Virus record (IMG/VR): IMGVR_UViG_3300024283_000005
Span: 1-47,908 of that record
Origin: a virus
Taxonomy: Duplodnaviria; Caudoviricetes
Length of the DNA stretch: 47,908 nt
Direction: 5' to 3' (one strand)
Shown here piece by piece: positions 2,590-18,988 of this stretch (the first letter of the stretch is position 1; each line of letters opens with the position of its first letter). The translations under genes were made by a program, and so were the position numbers. Under the pieces are notes generated by a model. The model did not search any database, was not told the origin of the DNA, and saw only the letters and a list, made by a program, of their open reading frames with translations.

Positions 2590-2937
2590 ATGACCGACCG
2601 CGGCATGGCCCGAGTGTGGCTACCCGACGAGCTCGCCGAGCGCGTGCGCCTCGCAGCGACCGCTCGAGGGCTGACCCTGCAGAAGCTCGGCGAGCAGCTC
2701 GTGCTCGAGGGGCTCGAGCAGCTGCGCCGCCAAGAGAAGCGCGAGCACAGCGCGGCCAACCGCGCGCGCCGCGCTGCCGCCGCCCACGACCTCGTCGGCT
2801 GTGACGCCTGCATCTGCCCCGCGCACGAGCACCCGGGCAGCCCCGCCCCCGGCGAGGGGCGTCACGACGTCGAGCCGTCCAGCGGTCACGACGTCGTGAC
2901 TCCTGACTGCGCCCCGGGCCCGCTCACCTGCCGATGA
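2590..2937 (+). CDS. Ribbon-helix-helix DNA-binding protein
   Basis: ARVWLPDELAERVRLAATARGLTLQKLGEQLVLEGL fits the RHH pattern; small Cys/His cluster in the C-terminal part. Confidence 0.65.
   Translation: MTDRGMARVWLPDELAERVRLAATARGLTLQKLGEQLVLEGLEQLRRQEKREHSAANRARRAAAAHDLVGCDACICPAHEHPGSPAPGEGRHDVEPSSGHDVVTPDCAPGPLTCR
2861..2900. promoter_or_regulatory. 8-bp-phased GTCnnGAC array 2 (downstream of the par operon)
   Basis: GTCACGAC GTCGAGCC GTCCAGCG GTCACGAC GTCGTGAC; includes the 16-bp palindrome GTCACGACGTCGTGAC at 2885-2900. Confidence 0.7.
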
Positions 2938-3430
2938 GCCGCCGCGCGACCTGCGACAGCGCGCTGCGCAGCTCGGCGCGGTCTTTGCCCCGCGCGACCG
3001 CGCGCTCGAGCTCGGGCAGCACTTCGGGCTCGAGCCACTGCTGCGACTCGGCGGCGAGATACCCGAGCACCGCCGCCGTCACCACGCCCGAGATCTCTAG
3101 GTCCGCGCCTTCGAGCCGCCGCCGCAGCACGTGCTGCCGCAGGGCGTCGCCGACCTCGACGGGCAAGTAGGCTTGTATGCGGTCAATCTCGCCGCCGTTT
3201 GCCCGCACACCGCGCCCCTTGCGCGAGCCCCGGGCGTTGGTGCGCGTGCGCTCGCGCTCGCGCGGCTCGAGCCCCTCGCTGCCCGCGAGCGGCATCTGCC
3301 GCGTTATGTCGCGACGCACTGCGACGTGCTCGGCGCCGCTCGTATCCACCGCCGGGCTCGGCACACGCACCTCGTCGACGCGCGCCGTGGCGGGCGCTCG
3401 GCGCAGGTTGCTGTTGACGGGCACGCTCAT
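2924..3430 (-). CDS. ParG/omega-like RHH centromere-binding partner of ParA (type Ib partition)
   Basis: Overlaps the parA stop; low-complexity N-terminus then IQAYLPVEVGDALRQHV...ISGVVTAAVLGYL RHH-like segment. Confidence 0.65.
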   Translation of the reverse strand: MSVPVNSNLRRAPATARVDEVRVPSPAVDTSGAEHVAVRRDITRQMPLAGSEGLEPRERERTRTNARGSRKGRGVRANGGEIDRIQAYLPVEVGDALRQHVLRRRLEGADLEISGVVTAAVLGYLAAESQQWLEPEVLPELERAVARGKDRAELRSALSQVARRLIGR

Positions 3431-4158
3431 CGAGCACCCGCCGACACTGCCTGCGCGCGCTGCGTGTCGCCCGACGCCGCCGGCAGCCGCAGCCGCGGGC
3501 CCGCGAGCGCCTCTATGTCACTCATGAGCCGCCACACTTCGAGCGCCGCAATGCTGCCCGGCCGACACACCGTCACACCCTGCCCGCGCGCAAACGCGTG
3601 CCCGTAGTCCGCGCGCCGCCGCAGCACCGCGTCGGCGACCGGCACGTGCAGCTGCGACCTGACATCACTCTGCAACGCCCGCGCGCCGCGCACGCGATCG
3701 TCGAGCCGCGTGATCAGCACCATCACGTCGAGGGGCTCGAGGCCGCGCTCACTGCGCGACCGCTGCGCAGCGCGTGCAATGTCCACCGAGCTCGAGAGCT
3801 CCATCTGCTCGGTTACCTCGTGCGACACCGGGATGAGCGCGAGGTCGCACTGCGAGAGCACCTCGGCTTGCACCTCATTCATGCGCGGCGGCGTGTCGAC
3901 CACGATCGCGTCGTACTGCCGCCGGGCGTCGATGAGCTCGCGGTGCAGCTGCACCACGCGCTGCCAGTGCTGCCCGTCGGGCCGCTCGCGCTTCTGCTCG
4001 CGCCCAATCTCGATCCACTGCGACGCCGACCCTTGCGGATCAGCGTCCACGAGTAGGGTATTGACCCCGCGCCGCTGCAGCTCGGCAGCCACGCTCACTG
4101 ACAAGGTCGTCTTACCCGACCCGCCTTTTTGCCCGCAAAACGCGATTACGTACGCCAT
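3427..4158 (-). CDS. parA: ParA family partition ATPase
   Basis: Deviant Walker A GQKGGSGKTT, LLVDADPQGS, Walker B YDAIVVDTPP; no N-terminal HTH (type Ib). Confidence 0.95.
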   Translation of the reverse strand: MAYVIAFCGQKGGSGKTTLSVSVAAELQRRGVNTLLVDADPQGSASQWIEIGREQKRERPDGQHWQRVVQLHRELIDARRQYDAIVVDTPPRMNEVQAEVLSQCDLALIPVSHEVTEQMELSSSVDIARAAQRSRSERGLEPLDVMVLITRLDDRVRGARALQSDVRSQLHVPVADAVLRRRADYGHAFARGQGVTVCRPGSIAALEVWRLMSDIEALAGPRLRLPAASGDTQRAQAVSAGAR

Positions 4159-4165
4159 GCTACGC

Positions 4166-4187
4166 AGTGAACGCTCGAGCGTTCACT
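4166..4187. promoter_or_regulatory. Perfect 22-bp palindrome (operator candidate) just upstream of parA
   Basis: AGTGAACGCTCGAGCGTTCACT; TTGACA on the minus strand at 4189-4194 is adjacent. Confidence 0.6.
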
Positions 4188-4194
4188 CTGTCAA

Positions 4195-4265
4195 GTTACG
4201 ACGTCAGAGCGGCCAGACGTCACGACGTCGGCGTGTGGAGTCAGACAGTCACGACGTCGTGACTG
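4195..4265. promoter_or_regulatory. 8-bp-phased GTCnnGAC array 3 (parC/parS candidate upstream of parA)
   Basis: GTTACGAC GTCAGAGC GGCCAGAC GTCACGAC ... GTCAGACA GTCACGAC GTCGTGAC; 20-bp palindrome CAGTCACGACGTCGTGACTG at 4246-4265. Confidence 0.7.
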
Positions 4266-4649
4266 CTCGACCGTTGCGCGTCAGACGCGACATATGTGCG
4301 CGCCAAAAGCGTTGCAGCTCGTCGCGCTCGCGGTTAGCGTGCACGTCACTGCGCCCCCAAAGCGCACGAAAGGCCGGTCAGCGTTGCAACCGCTGACCGG
4401 CCCGCAGAAACCCCTATCACAAGGCATCTCACCGTGAATCGTACCATAAAAACGCTCAGAATCGCACTCGTCACCGCGCTGCTCGCTGCGCATGCTTGGC
4501 TCGAGGACGCCTCGCCCGAGTACGACTGCGACCTCGTCGCAGAATGCGCACAGCCGCAGTAGGATCGCGCTCGAGCCGACTGCCCGCCGCGCCGCGCCAA
4601 CCCCACCCGGCAGCGCGGCGGGCCGACCGCTCCTGCGCCGTGCTCAGCC

Positions 4650-5021
4650 ATGACCACGCCCCGCAGCCGACCCCGTCGCCGACCCCAAGACGCCAAGCCC
4701 CGGACACCGATCACAGACTCCGAGCGCGTGCGCCGACTCTACGCTCGCGGCATGCCGCGCAAGGCCATCGAGAAAAAGCTGAAGCTCAGCCGGCAGACGG
4801 TCAACTCTGCGCTCATGCGCTCGAGCACGCGAGGCCGCCCACGTGGCGACCTGCACGCGAGGCTCACCGTCGTCACCGACGAGGCCACCGTCGAGTGGCT
4901 GCGCTCGCTCGCCCGCGAGCTGCGTGTGTCCATGGGCGAGGTGCTGCGACGCATGCGGCTCGCCATGACCGAGCTCGAGCACGACCGCGAGCCACGCGCT
5001 GCAGCCGACGGCGGCGGCTGA
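4650..5021 (+). CDS. HTH + RGRP + RHH DNA-binding protein
   Basis: VRRLYARGMPRKAIEKKLKLSRQTVNSAL (HTH), RGRPR, RLTVVTDEATVEWLRSLARELRVSMGEVLRR (RHH). Confidence 0.7.
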   Translation: MTTPRSRPRRRPQDAKPRTPITDSERVRRLYARGMPRKAIEKKLKLSRQTVNSALMRSSTRGRPRGDLHARLTVVTDEATVEWLRSLARELRVSMGEVLRRMRLAMTELEHDREPRAAADGGG

Positions 5022-5113
5022 TTTTGCCTGTACAATAAAGACTTGACGCGGCAGACCCTGCGAAACAAGCTACTCGCGCGCCCCGCGCAACGCCCACGAA
5101 GGAGCCGCAAACG

Positions 5114-5725
5114 ATGCCTGCGAAGTCCACCGCCGCACCCCGCGCCGCCACGATCCGACGCATCCTCGACCGCGGGGGCAGCCGCCCGCTCGCGGCCAAG
5201 CTCACCGGCGCGAGCCGCCAAGCCGTGGCAGAGGCCGCCAAGCAACGGCGACCGCGCGGGCGCCCACCCGTCGCGCTGCCCCGCGATCGGCTCACCGTCT
5301 ACGTGCGCCAGGTCACCGCGCTGCGCCTCTCCGACGCCGCGCACGAGCGCGAGCAGACCGTCGGCGAGGTCATCGACACGCTCAGCGAGCCGCTGCGCAA
5401 GCGCGAGCCATGGGCCCCTTGCAAGCTGTGCGGTGCGCAGATGTTTGTGCAAGACCCCGGCGAGGTGCCGCTCGAGCTCGAGCGCATCTTGACGCAGATG
5501 CTCACGCAGGAGACCCGCGATCGCACCGTCGCCGACTACCACAACAGCACCGCGATCGGCGCCCGCGTCGGGCTCGCCTACGTGCTCGACCGCATGGCGG
5601 GCCACTGCTCGACGTGCGGGCCATGGGTGAACCTCCTGCGCGCCGAGCGGGCCCAGCCCGTGACGTCAGAGCGTCAAGACGTCACGACGTCGCAACGTTC
5701 CGACGTCGGGGCAGCTCGGCCATGA
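5114..5725 (+). CDS. HTH + RGRP + RHH + CxxC protein, paralogue of 4650..5021
   Basis: AAGGAG RBS; LAAKLTGASRQAV, RPRGRPP, RLTVYVRQ...TVGEVIDTL, CKLC...CSTC. Confidence 0.7.
   Translation: MPAKSTAAPRAATIRRILDRGGSRPLAAKLTGASRQAVAEAAKQRRPRGRPPVALPRDRLTVYVRQVTALRLSDAAHEREQTVGEVIDTLSEPLRKREPWAPCKLCGAQMFVQDPGEVPLELERILTQMLTQETRDRTVADYHNSTAIGARVGLAYVLDRMAGHCSTCGPWVNLLRAERAQPVTSERQDVTTSQRSDVGAARP
5665..5712. promoter_or_regulatory. 8-bp-phased GTCnnGAC array 4
   Basis: GTCAGAGC GTCAAGAC GTCACGAC GTCGCAAC GTTCCGAC GTCGGGGC, just before ATG 5722. Confidence 0.7.
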
Positions 5726-5973
5726 GCGGCTTTTACGCGGCTATCGGCTCGCTCGGCACGCTCCCCGGGCGCGATCGCGTGCTCGGCGTCGGGCGCACCG
5801 AGGCCATCGCGCTCGAGGACGCCCGTCAGGGCGCGCTCGCTGACCCCGACGTGCCCCGGCGCGTCTACGCGCTCGTCGAGCTCACACCGGCCCAGCACAG
5901 CCGCGTGCTGTGCGGCGAGCTCGATGCCGTCGAGCTCGGCCTCGCGCCGCCCGCCAACCATCAACACCACTGA
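5722..5973 (+). CDS. Hypothetical protein
   Basis: ATGA-coupled to the previous gene; codon style typical of this genome. Confidence 0.6.
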   Translation: MSGFYAAIGSLGTLPGRDRVLGVGRTEAIALEDARQGALADPDVPRRVYALVELTPAQHSRVLCGELDAVELGLAPPANHQHH

Positions 5974-6052
5974 CCCCGAGACCGCTACCGTAAACGCGTC
6001 GACTTTTGCCACCATACGGCCCCTAACGAGGTCGAAAAAGAGGAACTGTCCC

Positions 6053-6637
6053 ATGACTGCACACCACCGCACCCCGCTCGAGCAGATACGCGACCTGCTG
6101 CCCGACCACACCCGCGCCGAGATTATCGCGGGCGAGCTCATCGTCTACCCGCCGCCGACGGCTCGGCACAACCTCGTCGAGCGCCACCTCGCCACGCAGC
6201 TCGACGACGCGCTTGGCGGCGGCACGCGCGGCAACGCCCGACGCTGGCTCATCCTGCAGGGCGCGGGCGTCTACCTGCCCGAGACCCTGCGTGAGAGCGA
6301 CGAGCGCGAGTATCTCGTGCCCGACGTCGTCGGGTGGCGCATCGTCAACGCCCCGCGCGACCTCGACGCGGGCATATTTTGGGAGCGCCCCGACTGGGTG
6401 TGTGAGGTGCTCTCGAGCAAGCCCGGGCGCGACCGCTCGAGCAAGCGCGAGCTCTATCAACGCATGGGCGTGCCGCACTATTGGATGGTTCACCCGCGCG
6501 AGCGTTGGATCGATGCATGCTCGCTGCCGAGCACGCAGCTCTACCAATGCCAGCGGCACGCCTACGCGCCCACGCTGCAGCTCGAGCCGTTCGACATCGA
6601 GCTCGACCTGCGCCGCATCTTCGACGTCGAGCTGTAG
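6053..6637 (+). CDS. Uma2/DUF820 family PD-(D/E)XK endonuclease
   Basis: AEIIAGEL, P..RH, LVPDVVGWR, PDWVCEVLS, K..LY...GVPHYWMVHP; GAGGA RBS before ATG 6053. Confidence 0.9.
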   Translation: MTAHHRTPLEQIRDLLPDHTRAEIIAGELIVYPPPTARHNLVERHLATQLDDALGGGTRGNARRWLILQGAGVYLPETLRESDEREYLVPDVVGWRIVNAPRDLDAGIFWERPDWVCEVLSSKPGRDRSSKRELYQRMGVPHYWMVHPRERWIDACSLPSTQLYQCQRHAYAPTLQLEPFDIELDLRRIFDVEL

Positions 6638-6717
6638 GGGGCTCGCGGCGTGCTGCGCCTACCGCGGGTTACGCGCCTCACGAGCAGCCGGCAGGCCGGC
6701 AGCTCGCTCGGGCGCGT

Positions 6718-7026
6718 CTAGCTGCCAGGCTCGATCTCGCGGATATCAATCTTGCTGACCGGCGCATCGAGCGTGCCCGCAAAGAGCTGCAGCACTCCGT
6801 CGAGCACCTCGCACAGCTTCTCGCGCTCGCCCATGGTCTGCCACTTGGCCGACAGCGAGCACGCGCCCCGGGCCTCGCGCTCGTAGACCACGAGCGCCAC
6901 CGCATAGCGCTCGAGCAGCGGGCCGCAATGCTTCTCGATCGTCTCGAGCAGCGCGTCGCCAAAGTCGGCGCATTCCTGCGACCGCCGCTGCATGTCCCGC
7001 ATATCCGGCATGGCGGCGCCCAGCAT
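6718..7026 (-). CDS. Hypothetical protein
   Basis: 102-aa ORF with protein-like composition; start uncertain. Confidence 0.55.
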   Translation of the reverse strand: MLGAAMPDMRDMQRRSQECADFGDALLETIEKHCGPLLERYAVALVVYEREARGACSLSAKWQTMGEREKLCEVLDGVLQLFAGTLDAPVSKIDIREIEPGS

Positions 7027-7089
7027 GCCCGAGCTCGCGGGGCGCGTAAAGCGCCTCTCGCGCGCGCGAGGGGGCCCGCGGGCGTCAGA

Positions 7090-7145
7090 GTCTAGGAGTC
7101 ACACAGTCAGACAGTCACGACGTCACAACTGTCAGGCGTCCAAGA
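7090..7145. promoter_or_regulatory. 8-bp-phased GTCnnGAC array 5 in a divergent intergenic region
   Basis: GTCTAGGA GTCACACA GTCAGACA GTCACGAC GTCACAAC TGTCAGGC GTCCAAGA. Confidence 0.7.
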
Positions 7146-7216
7146 GCAACGCCCGATAACGGTGTTTATGTCGACTCGTGCGCAGCGCCTGCACACCTGC
7201 TTTATGCTCGGGCCCC

Positions 7217-7453
7217 ATGCAATCCGCCACGTTCCGCCCCACGGACATCACGCTCGACTACGATGGCACCCTCTTGCGCGTGTGGGTTGCCGACCCCGAT
7301 GCACTCGGCGACGTGCACTGCGTGCTCGGGCACGCGAGCGACGCCAAGCTCGACGGCCCCATCGTGGGCATGTTCGCGGTGCACTCGTCGCTCGCTCACA
7401 CGCTGCCGGGCAAGCTCGCCAAGTATGCGCAGCACGCCGTCGACCGCCTCTGA
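7217..7453 (+). CDS. Hypothetical protein
   Basis: MQSATFRPTDITLDYDG...; TATGCT 8 nt upstream of the ATG. Confidence 0.6.
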   Translation: MQSATFRPTDITLDYDGTLLRVWVADPDALGDVHCVLGHASDAKLDGPIVGMFAVHSSLAHTLPGKLAKYAQHAVDRL

Positions 7454-7463
7454 GGGGCGCGCA

Positions 7464-7712
7464 TCACGCCTGCACGCGCCTCTTGTGCCCCTCAGCTATG
7501 GCCGCCTCGATCGCCGCCGCGTGCGGCTTCATCGCTGCCGCAAAGCGCGTTGCTTCGATTATCGCAACGACGTCACCGCGCTCGACCCCCGCACGCAGCT
7601 CGACCGCCCGCCGGTGCAGCTCCTCGAGCTGCTCGATCATCCACAAGCGCGTCGCGCGCACGTCGACCGGGTTGCCGTGCTCGTCGACCTCGGGCGGCTC
7701 TCTATCTGTCAT
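7464..7712 (-). CDS. Hypothetical helical protein
   Basis: MTDREPPEV...; GGAGG RBS; overlaps the upstream stop. Confidence 0.6.
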   Translation of the reverse strand: MTDREPPEVDEHGNPVDVRATRLWMIEQLEELHRRAVELRAGVERGDVVAIIEATRFAAAMKPHAAAIEAAIAEGHKRRVQA

Positions 7713-8002
7713 CGACGCCCCTCCCACGCTGCGTAGTCCTGCAGGGCGACCGCTTCCGTAGCGGCGCCAGGCCGCACCCCATCCGCGAGCAGCGTCTCGC
7801 CCACAGTGTTCATCAGCATCCCCCGCACGGCAGCGCGGCTGCCGAGCGTCGTCTGCAGGGCGAGCGCCTGCTCTGGCTCGCCTGCGGCGCCATGCACGAT
7901 AATCGTCACCGCGTCGCAGGGCCCGAGCAGCTCGAGCGCGTGCTCGAGCAGTGTGGACGCAATCAGATACCGCGCGCGTGAGCTTGTTGGTGAGTCTGCC
8001 AT
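7709..8002 (-). CDS. Hypothetical protein
   Basis: AAAGGA RBS upstream; 97 aa. Confidence 0.6.
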   Translation of the reverse strand: MADSPTSSRARYLIASTLLEHALELLGPCDAVTIIVHGAAGEPEQALALQTTLGSRAAVRGMLMNTVGETLLADGVRPGAATEAVALQDYAAWEGRR

Positions 8003-8042
8003 AGGCGTCCTTTGTCGCTCCTACCATCGAACACTCGTTGCG

Positions 8043-8942
8043 TCACTCGGCGGCGCGTGACTCGCGCATCAAGCGCAGAATCACGTGCCCTATCACCTCT
8101 GCGCACTGCGGGACGACTGCGTTTCCGAGGGCTGCGATGCGCGGTCTAGCTCTGTCCAGCCTGCCGGAAACCCCATGAACCACTCGCACCATTGGGGGCT
8201 GAGGTGACCCCCAGTGGCAAACGCGCTCAGCGACGGTGACTTGCGGTTCATCTCCGAGGGCGACGCGCCTTTTTCGTCGTGCTTTGTCAGCGTGGGCAAG
8301 CGGCGATGCGCGGGCCACTTCTGCATCGACGGGCTTAGCAGTTTCCCCTTTCGAGTTAGCGTCGGCATCAGGCCGTCGCGGGCCATGCGCTGCAGTGACA
8401 TGCGGACTTTTCCCGTTCTGCCCGCTGCCCCGCCCTGGTTCGTGCCATACGAGTGTCGCGTCAGCGTTGGCAGCAACGATGAAAACTCTTGCTCGCGCGT
8501 GCGGCGCTCCGACATCAGCTGCCGCAAGCGGGATCGGTAGGCACACGTACCCTTCGAGCTCCAGCCCTTCGACCACTGCGTCAACCCACGCAGCCGCTCC
8601 GCTGGCGACATTTTCGACCACGACCCAGGGCGGTCGTAGCTCGGAGACGATACGACGGTACTCAACCCAGAGGCCGCTACGAGTACCAGTGATGCCAACT
8701 CGCTTTCCAGCGCTGCTGACGTCCTGACAGGGAAATCCGCCGCAGATGAGGTCAACAGCGGAAAGAACGGAAGCGCCAACTGTGCGGACATCTTCAAACC
8801 TCTGCGCGTTGGGCCAATGCTTGGCGAGCGCCGCGCGGCAGTATGCGTCCTGCTCCACCTGCCAAACGGTTTCACCGATGCCGGCCCGCTCGAGCCCAAG
8901 CTCAAGCCCACCGATGCCAGAGAACAAGGAACCGATTCGCAT
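8043..8942 (-). CDS. DNA cytosine-C5 methyltransferase, main (alpha) chain
   Basis: Motif I SLFSGIGG, IV GGFPCQD, VI VENV, VIII PHARARVFIVA, X LGNAVVPQ; no canonical motif IX. Confidence 0.92.
   Translation of the reverse strand: MRIGSLFSGIGGLELGLERAGIGETVWQVEQDAYCRAALAKHWPNAQRFEDVRTVGASVLSAVDLICGGFPCQDVSSAGKRVGITGTRSGLWVEYRRIVSELRPPWVVVENVASGAAAWVDAVVEGLELEGYVCLPIPLAAADVGAPHARARVFIVAANADATLVWHEPGRGSGQNGKSPHVTAAHGPRRPDADANSKGETAKPVDAEVARASPLAHADKARRKRRVALGDEPQVTVAERVCHWGSPQPPMVRVVHGVSGRLDRARPRIAALGNAVVPQCAEVIGHVILRLMRESRAAE
8093..8791 (-). CDS. Nested alternative-frame ORF, putative MTase beta subunit carrying motif IX
   Basis: 232-aa ORF wholly inside the MTase; GAGG RBS; LLPTLT/LMPTLT/LPTLT repeats and LSPQWCEWFMGFPAGWT (motif IX-like). 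Confidence 0.7.
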   Translation of the reverse strand: MSAQLALPFFPLLTSSAADFPVRTSAALESELASLVLVAASGLSTVVSSPSYDRPGSWSKMSPAERLRGLTQWSKGWSSKGTCAYRSRLRQLMSERRTREQEFSSLLPTLTRHSYGTNQGGAAGRTGKVRMSLQRMARDGLMPTLTRKGKLLSPSMQKWPAHRRLPTLTKHDEKGASPSEMNRKSPSLSAFATGGHLSPQWCEWFMGFPAGWTELDRASQPSETQSSRSAQR

Positions 8943-9007
8943 GGGGCCACGGCGACGCTCGTGGGCGAGCGCGCGCCGAGTCAAGCTCGCTCGGCAACCG
9001 ACCCCTG

Positions 9008-9286
9008 CTACCGCTCGCCGAGTTTCTTTGCGCGCCCCATGTAGCCTGCGATTCTGCCTCGCTGCACTCGCCGCGAGCGGCTGTGCTCGTCACACATTTG
9101 CAGCACCACAGACGGCTGCACGACTTCGAGGACGCTGACCATGAGCGCCGTGTAGGCGTCGGTGCACTCGCCCGACTCCGCGTCAAGCAGGCCCTTCGAC
9201 GCTTCGAGCCCCTGCTCGAGGTGACAGTATAGGCAAACCGTCACAAACCGCTCGCCATGGTACCCGCTGCCGCTCACGGCTGCCAT
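9008..9286 (-). CDS. Hypothetical protein with CxxC...CxxH
   Basis: CLYC and CDEH; directly follows the stop of 9288..9554. Confidence 0.55.
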   Translation of the reverse strand: MAAVSGSGYHGERFVTVCLYCHLEQGLEASKGLLDAESGECTDAYTALMVSVLEVVQPSVVLQMCDEHSRSRRVQRGRIAGYMGRAKKLGER

Positions 9287-9287
9287 G

Positions 9288-9554
9288 TCACCCCGCGAGC
9301 ACGGCGCGAACCGCCGCGTCCTTGCCTTCGAGCAGCTTGCGCAGCGCCACCGTGAGCTCGGGATTGTGCGGGCAGTGCAGCACGAGCCACGCCGCGAGCT
9401 CGCAGAACGGCTCAGACACCTCGCGCAGATGCGCGGGCAGATGCTCGTAATGGAAAAACTGCATCACGTGCCCGATTGGCTGCGGTAGCGACCGCTCGGG
9501 CTTGGCAGCTGTCGGCGGCGGCGCGGGCTCGGTTGCTGGCTTGTCTTCGCTCAT
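9288..9554 (-). CDS. Small conserved phage helical-hairpin protein (possibly Acb2/Tad1-hairpin related)
   Basis: FFHYEHLPAHLREVSEPFCELA...PELTVALRKLLEGKDAAVRA, a motif I recognise from many phage proteins; function inferred only. Confidence 0.75.
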   Translation of the reverse strand: MSEDKPATEPAPPPTAAKPERSLPQPIGHVMQFFHYEHLPAHLREVSEPFCELAAWLVLHCPHNPELTVALRKLLEGKDAAVRAVLAG

Positions 9555-9604
9555 GGGGCCTCGTGCGTTGGGCAACCTATCAGCCGGGCTTACAGGTTGC
9601 GTTG

Positions 9605-10018
9605 TCAGATCTGCCCGCGAATGCGGAAGTCGGGCACTACGTCGCCGTCGACGCACGCCCATAGGTGCAGCACGTTGGGCGATAGGTTGACGTACTTGTC
9701 GACCGTCGGCAGCACCTGCAGCGCCGTGAGGTCGGGCAAAAACGTCTGTTTGACGAGCTTGAGATCGTACCAGTCAGGCACCCGATCGCGACGCGACGCC
9801 GACACGTGCAGCCACCGCCGGCCGTCGGCCTCGACGCGCCCCGTGCAGATGACAAGCATGCTCAGCATGCGCCGCGCGGCTATCTGCCGGTACACCCACG
9901 GCCCAAAGTCGCGATCGGGCTCGCGCGCGAACGCCACCGGCGCGTCGGGGAAACGACCGTATACCCACGCGGGGATCTCAACCGTGAGGGGCTCGAGCCC
10001 CGCTCGCTCGCTCGTCAT
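9605..10018 (-). CDS. Conserved phage protein (DUF7694-like)
   Basis: WLHVSASRRDRVPDWYDL..VK..F...ALQVLP...YVN..PNVLHLW pattern. Confidence 0.75.
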   Translation of the reverse strand: MTSERAGLEPLTVEIPAWVYGRFPDAPVAFAREPDRDFGPWVYRQIAARRMLSMLVICTGRVEADGRRWLHVSASRRDRVPDWYDLKLVKQTFLPDLTALQVLPTVDKYVNLSPNVLHLWACVDGDVVPDFRIRGQI

Positions 10019-10051
10019 GGCGTCGACCCTCGCGCACGAGCTCGAGCGGCG

Positions 10052-10713: not shown

Positions 10714-10769
10714 GTCTAAGAGTCACGCCGTCAGAACGTCACGCCGTCACGACCGCGAGACGTCTCACA
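10714..10769. promoter_or_regulatory. 8-bp-phased GTCnnGAC array 6 in a divergent intergenic region
   Basis: GTCTAAGA GTCACGCC GTCAGAAC GTCACGCC GTCACGAC CGCGAGAC GTCTCACA; inverted repeat AAACGCTTT/AAAGCGTTT at 10675-10704 is adjacent. Confidence 0.7.
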
Positions 10770-11279: not shown

Positions 11280-11286
11280 CAGCGCG

Positions 11287-11628: not shown

Positions 11629-11727
11629 GTGCCGCCATCCATGCCCGCGCGTCTACCGCGACGCCCCGCCGCTCGTCCAGCCCCGGCGCCCCTTGCAACC
11701 CGAGCAGCCCGCCCACGATAGGCCGGC

Positions 11728-12408
11728 ATGCCACCACGCCGCCTATGGCTCGAGGTGCGGCTCGAGTTCGACGCGCTCGTCGACCGCGCCTACGCCGAGC
11801 ACACCGAGCAGCTCGAGCTGCGCCACCAACGCGACGCCCAGCGCAACCGCGACAACGCCGCCAAGTGGCGCGTCGAGCAGCGCCTGCGCGGTATCAAGCA
11901 GCCACCACTGACGGCAGACCAGCGCGAGCGCCGCCGCGTGCAGCGGGCCGCCATCCGGGCCGCCGACCCCGAGCTGCACCGCGCCACCCGACGCGACGAG
12001 CATGCCGCCCGCGTCGCCCGCGAGCTCGAGGCGACCGCCCGCGTGCGTGCTGCCCACGGCATGGGGCTCGAGCCGACCGCCGCTGACCTCGCACTCGCCA
12101 ACCGGCGACGCGCACGCCTCGACCGCATCAGCGCTCGCGCGCGCGCCAAGCGGATAGCCGCCAAGGCCGCCGGCCTACGAGGCACCCCACGAGCCCCGAG
12201 GACGCCCGAGCAGCTCGCCCAAGCCCGAGCCCGCTACGCCGCCGACGCCGAGCGCCTGCGAGCCGTGGCGCGGCTGCGAGAACGGGCTGCACGCCAGCGC
12301 GACCCCGACGCCTACCGCCGCCGCCTCTACGCGTGGCGCAACGCCCACCGCGAGCACGTGCGGGCCCAAAACCGCGGCTATGCGGCCAAGCGCCGCCGCA
12401 AGCGCTGA
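11728..12408 (+). CDS. Arg-rich helical protein resembling the N-terminal repeats of phage HNH proteins, with no HNH domain
   Basis: RARYAADAERLR, RDPDAYRRRLYAWRNAHREHVRAQNRGY. Confidence 0.6.
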   Translation: MPPRRLWLEVRLEFDALVDRAYAEHTEQLELRHQRDAQRNRDNAAKWRVEQRLRGIKQPPLTADQRERRRVQRAAIRAADPELHRATRRDEHAARVARELEATARVRAAHGMGLEPTAADLALANRRRARLDRISARARAKRIAAKAAGLRGTPRAPRTPEQLAQARARYAADAERLRAVARLRERAARQRDPDAYRRRLYAWRNAHREHVRAQNRGYAAKRRRKR

Positions 12409-12472
12409 CCTGCCCGGCAGCCGCCCGCATTCCGTAGCCTCTCGCTCGCCCCTCGACGCTGCGACAAATTGC

Positions 12473-12502
12473 TTGACAGCCTGTTTTGGCCATCGATACG
12501 CT
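12473..12502 (+). promoter_or_regulatory. Sigma70-type promoter
   Basis: TTGACA (12473-12478) N18 TACGCT (12497-12502); no convincing CDS downstream. Confidence 0.55.
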
Positions 12503-12721
12503 CGCGCTCGCGCGTTTTCAGGTAACGCAGCGACTAGGCTGACAGCGTCTACTTAGAACGCATCAAGAAAGAATCACTATCTGCTCTCCACAGATAGTGA
12601 GCATGAATGCGCTACAGACGCCGATAACGCGCGCGCGAGGACGTGTCAGCGAATAATCTTTGATTCCGCGTGGTTACGCGTCGAGTCAAGAGTGTGCTTT
12701 ACCGTCCCGTGATCGGGTAAA
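12501..12721 (+). other. AT-richer structured region: DNA-unwinding element and/or ncRNA
   Basis: Perfect hairpin TCACTATCTG/CAGATAGTGA (12574-12600), nested in CGCAT/ATGCG, GCGTCT/AGACGC and GCTGACA/TGTCAGC. Confidence 0.45.
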
Positions 12722-12737
12722 CCGGCCTCGCGAGGGC

Positions 12738-12850
12738 CCGCGCCGACGTACCCCTCACCCCGCTCGAGGCCGCGCCGACGTACCCAAAACGCCGAGCACC
12801 CCGCGCGCTGCCGTACCCCGACCCGCTCGAGCCCGCGCGCACGCGTACCT
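12738..12850. repeat. Iteron-like direct repeats, 32-33 bp period (putative plasmid origin)
   Basis: CGTACC cores at 12747, 12779, 12812, 12844; CCGCGCCGACGTACCC exact at 12738 and 12770. Confidence 0.6.
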
Positions 12851-13169
12851 GCACACGCGCACGACACGCACGCGCGCGCACGCGCGAGGCGCCACCAAGC
12901 AGGCATTGCACACGCCATGCCGCGACCGCCGCTGCCGCCATGCGATCCGTCGAGCAGGCGCTAGCAAGTTACTTGCTCGCGGGCGGCGGCAGATAGTTGG
13001 CGCAGCGCACCTCGCGCTCGAGCTCGGCGCGCTGCGCATCGGCGACGAGGGGCTCGAGCCACGGCGCGCGCGCGCCCGCGCAGCCGCGCGACCCTGCTAT
13101 GGTCGCGCGGGGGCTGACGCAGACATCGCGCTCTTTCCGGCCCCTGCAGTTCCGCTCACCGTCGCGAGC

Positions 13170-14123
13170 TCACGGCGGGCACGTTGTCGTCACGCAGCTC
13201 GTCGCCGCCGGGCCCGCGAGCCACTGCATGCACGACCGTCGCCGCACGTACCAGTTGCCGCACGGCAGCGCCGTCTCGCGCACGCTGCCCGCGCGGGCGA
13301 GCCGATCAGCACGTACCCCGGGCCCGCGCTGCAGCTCGAGCTGCTCGCCGCCCGCAGCCGCGAGCGCTCGCACCGCGTGCGTAAGGTTGCGTCGCGCGTC
13401 GCGCGTCGAGATGCCGAGCCCGACGAGCTCGCCGACAGTCTCAGGCCGGCAGCCCGCAGCCGCGAGCATGTCGAGCCACCCCGCGAGCGGGTTCAAACGC
13501 AGCGCCCAGCGTCGCGGCGCGTCGAGCGTCGCCGTGCCCGTCGCGAGCTCGCGGGCGAGCGCTGGCAAATTGTAGAGCTCGAATGGTGCACGCGCGTCGC
13601 CCGTCGACCGCACAAACCCGCCGACGTGCTCGTGCTCGGCGAGCTCACCGAGCAGCCGGCGCAGCTGCCGCCGCTCGCGGCTCGCGAGCCCGACCCGCTC
13701 GAGCCGCCGCCGCAGGTCACACAGCCGCAGCGGCACGACCCCGTCGCCCGAGTGCCCGCTCGCCAGCGCCACCGCTGCGCCGAGCACGTCGAGGTGCGAC
13801 TGCCCGAGTTCGCCTGCCCCGACCCGCTGCCGATAGCTGAACATGCCGTCAGTGACCCAGGCGCGAGGCACCGTGAGCGACCTCGCGGCGGCGACGGGCA
13901 CGGGTAGGGGCTCGACGCGGTCAACGAAGCTATTGATTCGGGCTATAGCGGGCGGTATACGTGGGGGCACGTGGCCTTCGACTGGTGATTGCAGTTGCTG
14001 GCTTCCGGGCTCGCCCTGACAGATTGGCGTCTGTCGCGAGTCCAAGGGTCCCAAGCCGCTGATACGGCGCGGGACTGGTCTATGTGGCGTAGGTGGGTTA
14101 GCTCGTGGCTCCTGCGCTACCAC
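13170..14123 (-). CDS. Putative plasmid-type replication initiator (TrfA/RepA winged-helix-like)
   Basis: GELGQSHLDVLGAAVALA...VVPLRLCDLRRRL...RERRQLRRLLGEL resembles the TrfA/RepA_C LxQxDLDV...el...lg...l...L pattern; adjacent to iterons; start uncertain. Confidence 0.45.
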   Translation of the reverse strand: MVAQEPRANPPTPHRPVPRRISGLGPLDSRQTPICQGEPGSQQLQSPVEGHVPPRIPPAIARINSFVDRVEPLPVPVAAARSLTVPRAWVTDGMFSYRQRVGAGELGQSHLDVLGAAVALASGHSGDGVVPLRLCDLRRRLERVGLASRERRQLRRLLGELAEHEHVGGFVRSTGDARAPFELYNLPALARELATGTATLDAPRRWALRLNPLAGWLDMLAAAGCRPETVGELVGLGISTRDARRNLTHAVRALAAAGGEQLELQRGPGVRADRLARAGSVRETALPCGNWYVRRRSCMQWLAGPAATSCVTTTCPP

Positions 14124-14179
14124 GCTCTCGCGCCAGGCGTCCAGCCATTTGCGGCACGAGAGCGCCGCTCGTCCACACT

Positions 14180-14851
14180 TTATCCCCGGGCCCGCGCCGA
14201 GCGTCTGACTGTTAGCCGATCGGCGACAGCGTCGACCGCGAGCCGACGCGCTCGCTCCATGCGCGTGTGCCGAGTGAATGACAGCGCCCAGCTCGGCGGG
14301 TTACACGCCCATGCGCTCGAGGTGCCGCCATACCGACGATCCCACTGCTCGGCAAACGCCTCGCGGTGCAGCTGGCAACCGTTGCCCAAGCAGATCGTGC
14401 TCGCCGTGTCATGTGCTGGACAGCTGACACCCTGCGATCGCAAGTCGAGATCGCCTGCGTCATGCAAGCGCACGAGCCGCAGCCTGTAGAGCAAGAGCCA
14501 CAGCCGGGCATGTTGCTCGGGCATCGACCGCGCCGAGCACCACTGCTGACCCGCGGGCAGCGTGCCGCCGTCTCGCCGATAGCGCGTGCGCCCGTCGCTC
14601 GCCGTTGCCCATTGCTCACGAACGTAAAGCCAATCGCCGACTCGCCCAAACGGACAGCGCCCCCGCTTGAGTACGTCGCTATCGTTGGCTCGCACAACCA
14701 CCAACGCGGGGCCCGGCGACACCTCGCCGCACTGCACTTGCTCGAGCTCGTGCCCGTCGGGCACACGCACCGGCAGCCACAGCTGCGAGCGCTGACCCGC
14801 TGCGAGCTGCCGCAATACGCCGCGCGAAACCGTGATTCCTAAGTCAGCCAT
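14180..14851 (-). CDS. ASCH/PUA-like phage protein
   Basis: CPFGRVGDWLYVREQW, W.SARSMP..ARLWL, RLHD, FAEQWD..YG...W..NP..W.LSF. Confidence 0.8.
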   Translation of the reverse strand: MADLGITVSRGVLRQLAAGQRSQLWLPVRVPDGHELEQVQCGEVSPGPALVVVRANDSDVLKRGRCPFGRVGDWLYVREQWATASDGRTRYRRDGGTLPAGQQWCSARSMPEQHARLWLLLYRLRLVRLHDAGDLDLRSQGVSCPAHDTASTICLGNGCQLHREAFAEQWDRRYGGTSSAWACNPPSWALSFTRHTRMERARRLAVDAVADRLTVRRSARARG

Positions 14852-15025
14852 GTAGACCCTTACAGCCCACTAGCATACCTTAGCGACCTTACGGTCTTGG
14901 CATGCGGCTACATCCGCATTCTGCCCCGTAGGAGTCTTTTCGCACCTACACTCAACCACTCACTTTAGGGCTAGGCCACCGACACCACGAGACGCGCGTC
15001 GCACAGTGTGGCACTACGGTGCACC

Positions 15026-15412
15026 ATGCGAGGGGCAGCCATCGAAGCGCAGCGGCACTACTATATTGTGTGGTCCGACTTCCATGAGGCCACAACGCCC
15101 ACCCCGCGCGACGTCGACCCGACGCGGCTAGTGGCCATACTCGCACGCACCACACGTGCCAAAACCCTGCCCGAGCTCGCAGGGCACCTCGGCATGCTCG
15201 AGCCGTGTGAGAATTTCAGTTATGACGACGCGGGGCAACGTGTCCTCTGCAACGTCGACCGCTATCACACAGCGGCGCTCTCACTAGGTCTCGCCCGCGC
15301 CATCGTCGAGCGGTTCACGCTCGCCTGCTCATACTCGCGTATGATGCACGCGCTGCTCGCCCGCTACCATCCCGAGATGGCCAACGCATACCGGCCTAGC
15401 GCCGCGTCCTAG
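15026..15412 (+). CDS. Hypothetical protein
   Basis: Protein-like ORF; TACGGT 5 nt upstream of the ATG. Confidence 0.55.
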   Translation: MRGAAIEAQRHYYIVWSDFHEATTPTPRDVDPTRLVAILARTTRAKTLPELAGHLGMLEPCENFSYDDAGQRVLCNVDRYHTAALSLGLARAIVERFTLACSYSRMMHALLARYHPEMANAYRPSAAS

Positions 15413-16694
15413 ACCCCGGCGTGTTGCCCCGCGTGGGCCCGGGCTTGTCACTCGGCGGCACCGCGGGCGCCTTCGGCACAGCTCGCCACCGCGACACCTG
15501 CGACACCTCGCGCGCAATCAACGCGTCTATCTCCTCGTCGGACAGCGACCGCCCGCCCCCGGCGCGGCTCGCATCCATCATGCGGTTGTAGGCCTCTCGC
15601 GCCCGCCCGAGCCCGCCGGGCTGCGAGCTGTCCGGCGCTGCCGGATCGGGCGCCGCAGGCGTTGGGGGCGCTGCAGGCCGCCGCTGCGACGCCGCCGCCG
15701 CCGGCTCGGGCGCTGCCGGCTCGGGCGTTGCAGGCGTTGCAGGCGTTGCAGGCCGGCGCTGTGACGCCACCGGCGAGGGGCGCCACCGCACGAGCTGCTG
15801 CGCGTCGTGCTCGAGCTCGTCGGCCTCGCGCTCGTCGTCGGCCTCGTCGCCGTCGTCGGCCTCGTCGGCTGTCGCTGCGCCCGTCTCGCCTGCGAGCGCC
15901 TCGGCTGCATCCATCGCCGCAAACACCCGGCGCCGCTCGGCGGCACCCGTGAGCTCGTCGACCACCTCGCGCACGCACGCTGCCCATGCATCCGCGTCGT
16001 CGTCTGTCGCGAGCTCGATAAGTCGCTGCCCGACGCGCAGCGCGAGCGCCGCATCGTCACGCACACCGCGCTCGAGCGCCTCGCGCAAGTGGCCATGCGC
16101 CGCCGCATTCGCCCAGCCACGCAGCGCCCGCTGCGCCGTCTCTCTGCCGGGCCCATGTTTGGGTATGTCGAGGTCAGGCCCCCGCCGCAGCGCGAGCAAC
16201 GAGTGGGCCATCGCCACGTCGAGCGGCATCTTGCCGAGCCCCGTCGATGCGTCGGCATCGTCGCCGCCTGACCAACGCTCGGCGGCAATGTGCGCGAGAC
16301 GCGGCGGCACCATCGACGAGCCGTAAACCGTCGAGCTGCCGATCAGCACCACAAACGAGCGCACCACAGCGCGCAGCGTCTCGTCGCTCGGCGGCACTCG
16401 CCCCTCGACCACCGCCCGCGCGCCCGCCTGCCCGGGCCGCCCGAAGACAACCTGCTCGAGCGGATAGTCAAGCAGCAGCGCGACCGCGATCAGCTGCCGC
16501 AAGTCGGGATCACGCTCACCCGTGCACCACGTCACCACCGTCGAGCCGTGCACGCCCAACGAGCGCGCAAACTTGTGCCGACTAAACCCCCGGCTCATGT
16601 ACGCCGCCCATATGCGGCGCTGCAGCGTCGGCTCGCCCATCGGGTCGTCGGGTGTAGGTGCTTCGAGGTCTGAGATTCTAAGCCGTAGCGCCAT
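15396..16694 (-). CDS. CI-like repressor (XRE HTH) with a long non-peptidase C-terminal region
   Basis: FSRHKFARSLGVHGSTVVTWCTGERDPDLRQLIAVALLLDYPLEQVVFG; divergent from the Cro-like gene. Confidence 0.75.
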   Translation of the reverse strand: MALRLRISDLEAPTPDDPMGEPTLQRRIWAAYMSRGFSRHKFARSLGVHGSTVVTWCTGERDPDLRQLIAVALLLDYPLEQVVFGRPGQAGARAVVEGRVPPSDETLRAVVRSFVVLIGSSTVYGSSMVPPRLAHIAAERWSGGDDADASTGLGKMPLDVAMAHSLLALRRGPDLDIPKHGPGRETAQRALRGWANAAAHGHLREALERGVRDDAALALRVGQRLIELATDDDADAWAACVREVVDELTGAAERRRVFAAMDAAEALAGETGAATADEADDGDEADDEREADELEHDAQQLVRWRPSPVASQRRPATPATPATPEPAAPEPAAAASQRRPAAPPTPAAPDPAAPDSSQPGGLGRAREAYNRMMDASRAGGGRSLSDEEIDALIAREVSQVSRWRAVPKAPAVPPSDKPGPTRGNTPGSRTRR

Positions 16695-16924
16695 GAGCGA
16701 GCCCCTTGCACGAGCGTTGCAGCATCTGCTCGAGCGGATAGACCGCCCGCGCGTCGTAGGTCAACAGGTTATGCCCGACTAAACGCTCTAAGGCTAGCCA
16801 GCGCAGGCTACAGCACGTCAAAAACGACTAGTCACGCCGCCACCCATGGCGGCGCCTACATGTGCGCAGCGGACGCTCGAGCGTGCGCTCGCTGTATATC
16901 TAACTGTTAGGTGTGGATAGAAGC

Positions 16925-16954
16925 TTGTGCGTTTGCTCGGCGAGCCCGTAGGCT
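16925..16954 (+). promoter_or_regulatory. Rightward (PR-like) promoter
   Basis: TTGTGC N18 TAGGCT, 9 nt before the cro-like ATG. Confidence 0.45.
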
Positions 16955-16963
16955 CGGCGGTCT

Positions 16964-17203
16964 ATGACGCTCCGCGAATGGTTCGACGCCAACGGACTGG
17001 GAAGCATCTCGCGACTGCATGGCCACACCGGCATCGCGTGCTCGACGCTGCGACGCATCGCAGCGGGCTCGAGCTACCCGCACCGCTCGACGGCGCGCAG
17101 CATCGCAGAGGCCACGGAACACGCAGTGTCCGTCGATGCGATCTATCGCGTGTGCAAGCGCCGCCGCCGCGAGCGCGAGCGCGAGCTGCTCGCTGCCACC
17201 TAA
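16964..17203 (+). CDS. Cro-like HTH regulator
   Basis: MTLREWF...ISRLHGHTGIACSTLRRIAAGSSYP...ARSIAEATEHAVSVDAI. Confidence 0.8.
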   Translation: MTLREWFDANGLGSISRLHGHTGIACSTLRRIAAGSSYPHRSTARSIAEATEHAVSVDAIYRVCKRRRRERERELLAAT

Positions 17204-17279
17204 CGCCGCACGCCTCGCTGCGCGTGCGCGCCGCTGCTCGCTCGCGTTGTCGGGGCTCGCCGCTCGAGCTCACTCCCCT

Positions 17280-18275
17280 ATGCACGACTACGTCAAAGTA
17301 CACGACACGTACTATGGGCCCGACTCGCCGCTCGACGGACTCGGGCGAGCGCTCCTAACCGCGCTCTTACACCTCGCCCGCCTGCACGCCCAGCGCATGC
17401 GCGCTGCGAGCGTCGCGCGCACTGCAACCGTGACAGTCACGCGCGACGCTTGCGTGACTGTCACGCCCAACGAGCAGCACGAGCCCGTGCCCATTGCGTG
17501 GTGCAACGGCGCACCGCTCAGCGTCCGTCAGATTGCAGCAGCAGCCGGGCTCACCACGCGTCAGACCAAACGCGGGCTCGAGCGCCTGCAGGCCATCGGC
17601 GAGATCGCCCCGCTGCCGGGCGGCGGCGTAGCTCTGCTCGGCTATTGGCGCACGCAAGAGACGCCCGCAGCCGCCCGCAAGCGCCGCTCGCGTGCCCGAG
17701 CTCGAGCCCGCGACGCTCGCGCAGACGCAGCCCGCGATCGCCCCAGCTCGGCGCTAGACCACGTCGAGCAGAATCAAGCAAACGAGACGCCGTCAGGGCG
17801 TGACAGTCACACACTAAGTCACACCGACAGTCACGCAGCCAGTCACGCAGCCAGTCACGCCCCCGGTCACGCGCACAGTCACGCCCGCGTCGCGCCCCTG
17901 CCCACCGCTGCAGCGGCGCACGACGTCGACATCGACCGCGGGCGTACGTGGCTCGACCTGCTTTGTCAGACCCTGTTTACGCGCCCCGCGCCCTACCCGA
18001 GCACGCACCACGAGCGCAACGCCTATGCCGAGCTCGGGCGCAAACCGCCGCGCGACCTCGCCCGCGTCGCAGCCACCATCACGCGGCTCGTGCGCGCTCG
18101 CCCCGACGTGCAGGCGTCGCGCTACTACACCGCCGGGCACGTGCTGCGGTATTGGCCCGACTATCTCGCGGGCGAGCCGCCCAGCGGGCGAGCTAAGCCG
18201 CTCGAGCAGCCCGGCCGCCCCGCGCCGCTGCGACCCGCTACCGCCGCCGAGCTCGCGGCAGAGGCCGTGTTATGA
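17280..18275 (+). CDS. Lambdoid-type replication initiator (replisome organizer)
   Basis: MHDYVKVH N-terminus; wHTH LSVRQIAAAAGLTTRQTKRGLERLQAIGEI; internal iterons; followed by a DnaC-like gene. Confidence 0.7.
   Translation: MHDYVKVHDTYYGPDSPLDGLGRALLTALLHLARLHAQRMRAASVARTATVTVTRDACVTVTPNEQHEPVPIAWCNGAPLSVRQIAAAAGLTTRQTKRGLERLQAIGEIAPLPGGGVALLGYWRTQETPAAARKRRSRARARARDARADAARDRPSSALDHVEQNQANETPSGRDSHTLSHTDSHAASHAASHAPGHAHSHARVAPLPTAAAAHDVDIDRGRTWLDLLCQTLFTRPAPYPSTHHERNAYAELGRKPPRDLARVAATITRLVRARPDVQASRYYTAGHVLRYWPDYLAGEPPSGRAKPLEQPGRPAPLRPATAAELAAEAVL
17805..17888. repeat. Seven 12-bp tandem repeats (AGTCACnnnnnn) within the initiator gene; putative lytic-origin iterons
   Basis: (A/G)GTCAC at 17805, 17817, 17829, 17841, 17853, 17865, 17877; GTGAC(A/T)GTCAC palindromes at 17430, 17454, 17800. 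Confidence 0.75.
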
Positions 18276-18988
18276 CCTCGCGCCGCGACGCCCCGCCGGC
18301 CTCTGTCGCATCGCTCATGCCGACCGCCAAGCAGCGGCTGCGTGAGGTCATCGAGCAGTGCGCCCGCGTGGTCGCCAGCGGCGGGCAGCGACCGCCGAGC
18401 CCACCCGGGCCGCCCCCCGACCCCGTCGCCCGAGCTCGCGACCGCAAGCTCGCTCGCCGCCGGCAGCTCGAGCAGCTCGGCGTCGGGCTCACGCCTCGTG
18501 TGCTCGAGCTGCTCGCTGCCGAGCAGCTGCCCCGCAGCTTGCCGCTCGATGCCGTGCGTGACTGGTACCGCGACCCCGAGCGGCGCCGCGTGCTCGTGCT
18601 GTGCGCGAGCGTCGGCTCGGGCAAGACCGTTGCAGGCGCCGCGCTCGCGCTCGAGCACCCCGCGAGTCTATGGGCGACCCCGCGCGCGCTCCTGCAGGCG
18701 CACGGCACGCTATACGGCGACGAGGGCGCGCGCTGGCAACGTCTCGCGCAGGCGCCGCTGCTCATCGTCGACGGGCTCGGCGGCGAGGAAACCCGCCACC
18801 ATGCGCAAGTGTCGCTCGCGCTGCGCGAGCTGCTCGAGGCGCGCGCGTCGCGCGACACGCTCGTCACGAGCTACGTCTCGCAAGGGCAGCTCAAGACCAC
18901 CTACGCGCACGGCGCGCTCGGCTCGCTGCTCGACGAGCTCGCGCTGCAGCGCACTGTCGCGGGCCCCAACTTGCGAGACAAGCCGTGA
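18272..18988 (+). CDS. DnaC/IstB-like AAA+ helicase loader (degenerate motifs)
   Basis: Walker A ASVGSGKT, Walker B LLIVDGLGGE, ELLEAR..RDTLVTS. Confidence 0.75.
   Translation: MTSRRDAPPASVASLMPTAKQRLREVIEQCARVVASGGQRPPSPPGPPPDPVARARDRKLARRRQLEQLGVGLTPRVLELLAAEQLPRSLPLDAVRDWYRDPERRRVLVLCASVGSGKTVAGAALALEHPASLWATPRALLQAHGTLYGDEGARWQRLAQAPLLIVDGLGGEETRHHAQVSLALRELLEARASRDTLVTSYVSQGQLKTTYAHGALGSLLDELALQRTVAGPNLRDKP

Follow-up and report, generated by a model that had tools for sequence, protein, structure and literature searches.

The 47,908 nucleotides of IMGVR_UViG_3300024283_000005, an entire virus record of IMG/VR bounded by direct terminal repeats, make up the stretch of DNA analyzed here (hereafter, the window). 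Based on its gene content, we interpret the window as the genome of a temperate myovirus whose lysogens likely maintain it as a low-copy circular plasmid and not in integrated form, probably in a myxobacterium of the order Polyangiales. The lack of any integration enzyme, a plasmid-type replication initiator (Rep), a segregation system and a dif-like site together point to a quiet plasmid life. The record has identical ends of 127 bp, giving a circle of 47,781 bp with 69% GC, and a second contig (L022) runs across the circle junction; both back the circularity proposed in an earlier annotation of the same sequence (hereafter, the original prediction). Seven retrieved relatives are syntenic with the window, and the large terminase subunit (TerL) is ~70% identical in syntenic relatives. 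Matching DNA was found in 24 soil or rhizosphere runs among those listed, eight of them flagged as possible sources. Feature coordinates are given in Table 1.

The original prediction had proposed a TrfA/RepA-like initiator with a start at position 14123; the initiator assignment held, and the most probable start is 13901, which gives 243 aa and agrees with the calls in P0006 and P0007. A model of Rep built from a 23-sequence alignment had a predicted local distance difference test (pLDDT) score of 80.8 and was confident over both winged-helix domains. With this model, Foldseek ranked RepE (F) first (E 9e-4, probability 1.00, template-modeling score 0.51) and also listed Pi and RctB, and VIA identified Pi as the best match (Z 11.1, root-mean-square deviation 3.3 over 187 residues), followed by RctB (Z 9.1). 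The window Rep model has the tandem winged-helix fold of Rep3/TrfA iteron-binding initiators. An earlier single-sequence model (pLDDT 46) gave no meaningful fold match and was replaced by the alignment-based one. Language-model features placed Rep toward Rep3/TrfA/RctB clusters (0.89–0.90), which we treat as a lead only, and a PDB sequence search with the Rep profile returned nothing relevant.

Profile comparisons connected Rep to TrfA through its relatives. A search of 1.84 billion representatives identified P0160 and P0163 as Rep homologues over most of the length, plus two short repeat matches; no relatives of the window Rep were found in viral contigs or in plasmids. The complete relative G001 encodes a Rep homologue at the equivalent position, and a search with that protein returned 14 clade proteins and five PF07042 TrfA proteins (E 1e-8 to 1e-6). 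The window Rep group matched the clade Rep at 97.6% (E 3e-12), and the clade Rep matched the PF07042 TrfA proteins at 99.3% (E 1e-20). The clade Rep also matched 11 plasmid records, nine of them annotated as trfA, and no relatives were found among cultured phages. Since the PF07042 hidden Markov model (HMM) matched neither the window Rep nor the G001 Rep, and the relation emerged from profiles alone, we filed the protein as TrfA-related. TrfA-related genes and phage-plasmids are described in Arsenophonus (PMC13202766), and a TrfA beside phage genes thus has a precedent.

Iterons had been predicted beside this gene; repeats do adjoin rep, albeit degenerate and unlike the canonical origins of the relatives. 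In all seven relatives with the corresponding DNA (G001, G006, G008, G009, G011, G012 and L156), the rep stop codon is followed by a perfect DnaA box, three repeats at 21–22-bp spacing, a (GC)n-ATCGGCG block, a lower-GC stretch and a promoter-like motif; the iteron sequence varies between these phages. The window retains the right-hand half of this origin, and because four CGTACC-cored repeats replace the DnaA box and iterons, it is the odd member of the clade in origin structure. The degenerate 6-bp cores are spaced at 32, 33 and 32 bp, three helical turns apart, an arrangement seen in 0 of 2000 simulations at this spacing and in 4 of 300 at any spacing. This is the only such tile in the genome, and its cores are identical in other alleles. 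The AT-richest 60 bases lie ~140 bp from the repeats, such that helically phased direct repeats near an AT-rich segment are present in degenerate form, and the candidate unwinding element includes a palindrome with 10-bp arms (12573–12601).

Contigs of runs X13, X16 and X17 change to other sequence at the conserved origin-edge motif, suggesting exchange of the replicon module between close kin, although the contigs may also belong to more distant phages. A scan with the origin-edge pattern returned 20 loci, comprising six clade records already known, one new member (L156) and 13 unrelated loci. The promoter-like motif is directed into the origin, and positions 12495–12519 can pair with 12623–12647; a small RNA is possible.

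The predicted partition pair, parA with a ribbon-helix-helix (RHH) partner, was borne out. ParA has its Walker A motif within the first 20 of 243 residues, and it scored 145.7 bits against NF041546, under the cut-off of 180. The RHH partner alone had no Pfam match; its family profile matched the CopG-family RHH structure 9kkd, albeit weakly (E 0.004), and among 1105 open reading frames (ORFs) of three myxobacterial plasmid loci, its best match was the gene after parA of the Sandaracinus plasmid pSa001 (E 1.5e-5). An RHH gene follows parA in all relatives in which both are covered (both complete relatives, G002, G007, G012 and L156). GTCA arrays precede parA, follow the partition operon and recur at three sites further right, and GTCA-N4-GTCA occurs 13 times against 2.1 expected, a sixfold enrichment. 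Relatives with a different RHH sequence carry other repeat motifs. In TP228, parH/OF likewise consists of tetramer boxes with 4-bp spacers, with one array upstream of the operon (PMC3130281). Judging from sequence, ParA, the RHH protein and the GTCA arrays constitute a type Ib partition system in which the RHH protein would bind the arrays. In pSa001 (L018, 11122–11960), ~75 consecutive 8-bp-period boxes lie upstream of parA, a likely centromere. Within the window, a GTC 8-bp-period array also occurs in the head region, distant from the partition genes (28398–28445), and two paralogous genes for small helix-turn-helix (HTH)/RHH-type regulators lie upstream of parA (4650–5021 and 5114–5725), with one homologue in G001, G007 and G012.

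A second replication system lies to the right of rep, where our analysis recovered the proposed CI/Cro pair and the separate initiator with internal iterons beside a DnaC-like loader. The language-model score of this initiator with Phage_rep_org_N clusters was 0.95–0.96, and its gene contains seven RGTCAC repeats with a 12-bp period. All six Ser-His pairs of the protein use the serine codon AGT, a codon chosen for 11 of the 198 serines that seven virion genes encode, and comparable repeat clusters occur in six relatives; on the basis of this codon use and these clusters, the repeats appear to be constrained as DNA. The presence of two replication systems, as originally predicted, is well supported, and the second is likely lytic.

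No recombinase that might integrate the phage was detected, in agreement with the original prediction; of the outcomes named there as refuting it, neither an integrase nor a missing initiator fold was encountered. Six-frame searches of the window gave zero matches to tyrosine recombinases (PF00589, E ≤10; control detected in 14/14 genomes), serine resolvases (PF00239, E ≤1; control in 13/14), the rve integrase core (PF00665, E ≤1; control in 11/14) and protelomerases (PF16684, E ≤1, and 0/5 genomes; control in 3/14). Other transposase families were covered only by the Pfam and PHROG scans of 30 and 64 chosen ORFs. A relative’s Cre-like protein matched nothing in the window beyond 26 residues (E 0.21). 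We rejected weak “invertase” and “transposase” matches of 4650–5021 and the small terminase, as they involved HTH segments only.

The window does contain a dif-like 28-mer, overlooked in the original prediction, that is a predicted target of host XerCD. Using a short pattern built from the dif consensus, we found one site in the window and one in G008; a third occurs in L156. The site has the 11-6-11 layout and the conserved inner ATAA/TTATGT, and its core appeared in 1 of 200 simulated genomes. Across these three members, the arms are near-identical and the 6-bp cores differ. In the window, the XerC arm is immediately preceded by the end of a GTCA array, and in G008 and L156 a repeat motif of their own lies ~120 bp from the dif-like site. 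When the pattern was scanned against 25 of 64 parts of the viral set, at least 119 loci matched, and ~310 viral stretches are estimated to contain it; no new clade member appeared among the loci listed (GC >60% or ≥2 gene matches). Several GC-rich viral records have dif-like sites (L171, L179, L180, L189, L208, L217 and L232), two of them 245 and 297 kb long.

The dif-like site and a gene for a Cre-like recombinase were mutually exclusive in 7/7 informative members, and both lie between rep and parA. The window, G008 and L156 have the site without the recombinase, and G001, G007, G009 and G012 have the recombinase without the site; G007 and G009 are incomplete, and G002, G006 and G011, which are missing the interval, were left out of the count. 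Such a split has a chance of 1 in 35 if members are independent, a figure that overstates the case because they are related. All 17 PDB matches of the clade recombinase are Cre or its derivative Tre, and the surroundings of the Cre-like genes showed no lox-like inverted repeat. Given this exclusivity and the shared interval, the simplest reading is that site and gene do the same job, dimer resolution, and host XerCD likely replaces Cre in resolving plasmid dimers. Phage-plasmids, as defined in PMC7969092, may carry recombinases for dimer resolution. A gene for a ParE toxin, preceded by that of a small partner, lies between rep and the recombinase gene in G001 (46881–47134 and 163–423), with a piece in G011.

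Several observations weigh against the interpretation presented here, and we consider each with the alternative that it favors. Regarding the host, four indirect pointers make Myxococcota a rather probable assignment. First, the window ParA ranked pSa001 at the top among 72,556 plasmids (E 1e-24; pMF1, E 4e-19), and for the G008 ParA, pSa001 (two records) and pMF1 ranked first to third. Second, the RHH partner also points to pSa001. Third, a TerL cluster with 70% identity includes a member from a Polyangiaceae metagenome-assembled genome (MAG). Fourth, when differences from the 48 dif sequences in Table 1 of PMC2731167 were counted by eye, the window dif arms differ at 4 of 22 positions from those of A. 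dehalogenans and M. xanthus, at 5 of 22 from Geobacter and Desulfovibrio, and at 6 or more from the other rows counted; the XerD arm of G008 and L156 is that of M. xanthus. The GC content and the soil origin also fit. An unlikely, albeit not negligible, alternative is the same phage-plasmid in another high-GC soil host, such as another former deltaproteobacterium or a member of Acidobacteriota, which would change the host only. ParA identities to the myxobacterial plasmids are just 35–39%, the MAG record is a 2-kb contig, the best plasmid matches of Uma2 are not myxobacterial, and the Geobacter and Desulfovibrio arms are just one base further by that count. Of the 119 viral loci scanned, 116 contain the XerC arm with one base changed, and 109 of the 119 have GC ≤60%; this arm is therefore not diagnostic of host. 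The myxobacterial host suggested in the original prediction gained several indirect supports and no direct link such as a CRISPR spacer or a host genome; against the alternative, all four pointers lead toward Myxococcota.

Plasmids are scarce in this group: a 2024 count lists only two myxobacteria with one (PMC11705834), and PLSDB contains a third record, pYRE (L157, NZ_CP102771.1), a 49,970-bp plasmid of Myxococcus stipitatus. Its recombinase is 40% identical to the clade Cre-like protein. We checked pYRE as a candidate phage-plasmid, and it has no annotated virion genes.

The main rival holds that the phage integrates at host dif through XerCD, in the manner of integrative mobile elements exploiting Xer (IMEX), and that its plasmid functions are transient or alternative only; we regard this as improbable. 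A dif mimic without an own integrase also characterizes elements that insert through XerCD, a route used by filamentous phages and a gonococcal island (PMC2731167), and the XerD arm in the window is non-canonical, with G at position 25, where G008 and L156 have A and where A is highly conserved in dif (PMC2731167). Against this rival, the site occurs only in members without the Cre-like gene, in the same rep–parA interval, a full replicon and partition system are retained, and the cores vary among the three dif carriers. No clade TerL was found in GTDB genomes by a pattern-based scan of limited reach, and contigs from four runs covering 1000–20000 had no joint or loose end at 7149–7176 among those listed. 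Four clade records (G007, G009, G011 and G012) are labeled “provirus” in IMG/VR, and in two the recombinase lies at the record end. We do not read these labels as integration, because each of the four stops at a different point, within a phage gene or at its margin, and because the recombinase gene is internal in G001 and G012. G007 and G009 could not be linked to longer parent contigs by protein identity.

Allele comparisons indicate that rep is a real gene under selection. Its frame is intact in 8/8 cluster members, and among alleles from contigs of other runs (listed in full, with 27 differences for one and 11 for another), the seven distinct changes within rep are without exception synonymous, where 28% would be expected; only five of the 27 differences fall in the 732-bp rep, compared with 22 in the adjoining 690 bp. 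It is highly improbable that the plasmid replicon has decayed and that the phage is effectively lytic or pseudolysogenic, with ParA and the RHH protein mainly regulators: the window Rep is the most divergent in its family and GTCA arrays occupy at least six intergenic or gene-end positions, as operators might, but its deletions are common to P0160 at 50% identity, and the intact frame, the synonymous changes and the confident model of both winged-helix domains argue against it. That reading also draws on the origin: the window genome has no perfect DnaA box anywhere and its origin none of the exact 22-bp iterons of the relatives. Also weighing against the main interpretation, the window Rep has no Pfam, PHROG or NCBIfam match, reaches only 46% (E 2e-4) when compared directly with TrfA, and is missing ~20 residues present in all clade Reps and TrfAs. 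Moreover, no endolysin or holin was recognized among 64 ORFs scanned, and our evidence consists of genes, folds, repeats, synteny and recombinase absence, from which the mechanism and the plasmid state are inferred.

On the plasmid interpretation, CI would repress the rightward lytic operon in lysogens, and the TrfA-related Rep would bind the repeats just downstream of rep and open the adjacent AT-rich segment. The RHH protein would coat the 8-bp-period GTCA arrays and pass the plasmid to ParA, with the partition operon autorepressed at the array that precedes parA. Host XerCD would resolve plasmid dimers at the dif-like site, a task performed by the Cre-like recombinase in sister phages. Upon induction, Cro, the replisome-organizer initiator (acting on its internal repeats) and the DnaC-like loader may drive lytic replication, after which terminase would package the DNA into the contractile-tailed virion.

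The original prediction compared the window to P1, and the comparison stands for the way of working and fails for membership in the P1 group. Like P1, this is a myovirus with an iteron plasmid replicon, a partition system and a separate lytic replicon, and some relatives also have a Cre-like resolvase and a toxin gene. In contrast, the window genome is about half the size of P1 and lacks Cre, whereas four relatives have a Cre-like recombinase; its initiator is TrfA-related, whereas that of P1 is RepA/RepFIB; its partition system is RHH type Ib, whereas P1 uses an HTH ParB; and its lytic control is lambdoid CI/Cro-O/DnaC. P1 subgroup 1 resembles the clade in replicase swaps at one locus (PMC7969092). 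Linear phage-plasmids such as N15 differ in having a protelomerase. The RK2/IncP-1 trfA-oriV system has a homologous initiator, by way of the clade Rep, and the relatives share its DnaA box, iterons and AT-rich origin; however, the window Rep falls under all HMM thresholds, the replicon is phage-borne, and the origin lies directly downstream of rep with three repeats (relatives) or four degenerate ones (window).

Among partition systems, TP228 ParF/ParG/parH has a similarly short ParA, an RHH partner and tetramer-box arrays with 4-bp spacers (PMC3130281), whereas the window has GTCA boxes with GC-rich spacers in short arrays spread over 8 kb and an RHH partner of 168 aa that is extended at its C-terminus. 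pSa001 (Sandaracinus) and pMF1 (Myxococcus fulvus) have the closest-ranked ParA, and pSa001 combines parA, an RHH gene and an upstream 8-bp-period array far longer than those of the window; however, no plasmid has a TrfA-like match to the window Rep, pMF1 is annotated without virion genes, and our view of pSa001 spans 24.6 of 209.7 kb. The cer and psi plasmid sites and IMEX (CTXphi and TLCphi) likewise use a dif-like site with host XerCD replacing an own recombinase; here, the element is a tailed double-stranded DNA phage with its own replicon, and the site alternates with a Cre-like gene among sisters.

The remainder of the genome is that of a contractile-tailed phage, with a complete contractile-tail module that starts at 20193. 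The packaging and virion genes named in the phage-plasmid definition (PMC7969092) are present: terminase, portal, protease, capsid, sheath, tube, tape measure and baseplate. A repeat-rich tail fiber gene spans the junction as a single 1903-codon frame (43370–47908 and 1–1300), and its distal part varies among relatives. Between the small and large terminase genes, in the window and in all covered relatives, lies a gene for a 403-aa protein with a tail-fiber-like N-terminus (20854–22065). A C5 cytosine methyltransferase gene (8043–8943) is bypassed in one contig of run X13 (joint 8056–8963), and its G008 homologue is located between TerL and portal. No tRNA was found in the window. The 26 nearest TerL clusters (56–71% identity) are on contigs of ≤48 kb, and among cultured phages TerL is best matched by that of Aeromonas phage 56 (39%). 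An unrelated viral record with 57% GC, G010, has adjacent TrfA-like and ParA genes (2639–4954) and no clade genes, and it was excluded from every count.

Table 1. Features of the window discussed in the text, in order of position.
Feature	Coordinates	Strand	Evidence or remark
GTCA/GTC 8-bp-period array, candidate centromere	2853..2903		just downstream of partition operon
RHH partner of ParA, putative type Ib centromere-binding protein, 168 aa	2924..3430	-	profile, synteny
ParA ATPase, short, no N-terminal HTH	3427..4158	-	PHROG 164, E 3e-38
GTCA-box array, candidate operator/centromere	4195..4271		parA promoter region; kept in G002
GTCA 8-bp-period array	5657..5707		repeat scan
GTCA 8-bp-period array	7084..7135		directly beside dif-like site; strains vary by 8-bp indels
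dif-like 28-mer, predicted host XerCD target	7149..7176	+	11-bp XerC arm, 6-bp core, 11-bp XerD arm
GTCA 8-bp-period array	10714..10756		repeat scan
Promoter-like motif TTGACA-18-TACGCT	12472..12507	+	conserved at origin edge; alignment with five relatives
Candidate unwinding element	12551..12645		most AT-rich genome segment (42% GC), palindrome, conserved (GC)n-ATCGGCG block
Four iteron-like repeats, CGTACC core	12733..12849		cores at 12747, 12779, 12812 and 12844
TrfA-related replication initiator (Rep), divergent, tandem winged helix	13170..13901	-	model, Foldseek/VIA, profile chain, allele differences
Conserved gene always adjoining rep	14180..14851	-	PHROG 874; PHROG scan, relatives
CI-like repressor, N-terminal HTH, long low-complexity tail	15396..16694	-	HTH_3, E 5.5e-6
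Cro-like regulator, divergent from CI	16964..17203	+	PHROG 3557, E 1e-4
Replisome-organizer-type initiator	17280..18275	+	language-model match; internal 12-bp repeats 17804-17884, likely lytic origin
DnaC-like helicase loader	18272..18988	+	PHROG 3277, E 2e-4
Virion module	20193..47908, onward via junction to 1300	+	terminase, portal, head, contractile tail, baseplate, tail fiber

Phage-plasmids themselves are known; this one is set apart as a variant by the TrfA-related replicon, the type Ib partition system, the Cre-or-dif alternation and the probable myxobacterial host. Neither Myxococcales nor Deltaproteobacteria appear in the main text of the principal phage-plasmid survey (PMC7969092), and in the available text of a myxophage preprint (10.64898/2026.09.14.751636), none of six new groups is termed a plasmid prophage. 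Our literature search, with most subscription papers outside its reach, found no description of the clade or of a myxobacterial phage-plasmid. With somewhat less than even confidence, we propose that the window represents a widespread soil family of 44–48-kb Polyangiales phage-plasmids, the first to be described for Myxococcota, with an exchangeable TrfA-type replicon and dimer resolution that flips between a Cre-like recombinase and host XerCD; because the dif mimic adjoins the array of the partition protein, the partition complex may steer recombination. If so, a mini-replicon would be an autonomous vector for Sorangium-type myxobacteria, with a candidate replicon of 1.5 kb for a group prized for its natural products. 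Because members have either Cre or dif, the clade offers a natural test of whether recombinases of this type act as resolvases, and it warns that lifestyle tools would class these phages as virulent for want of an integrase or as integrating on account of the Cre-like gene. Views of lysogeny and gene flow in myxobacteria would change with a replicon and partition unit carried by a phage.

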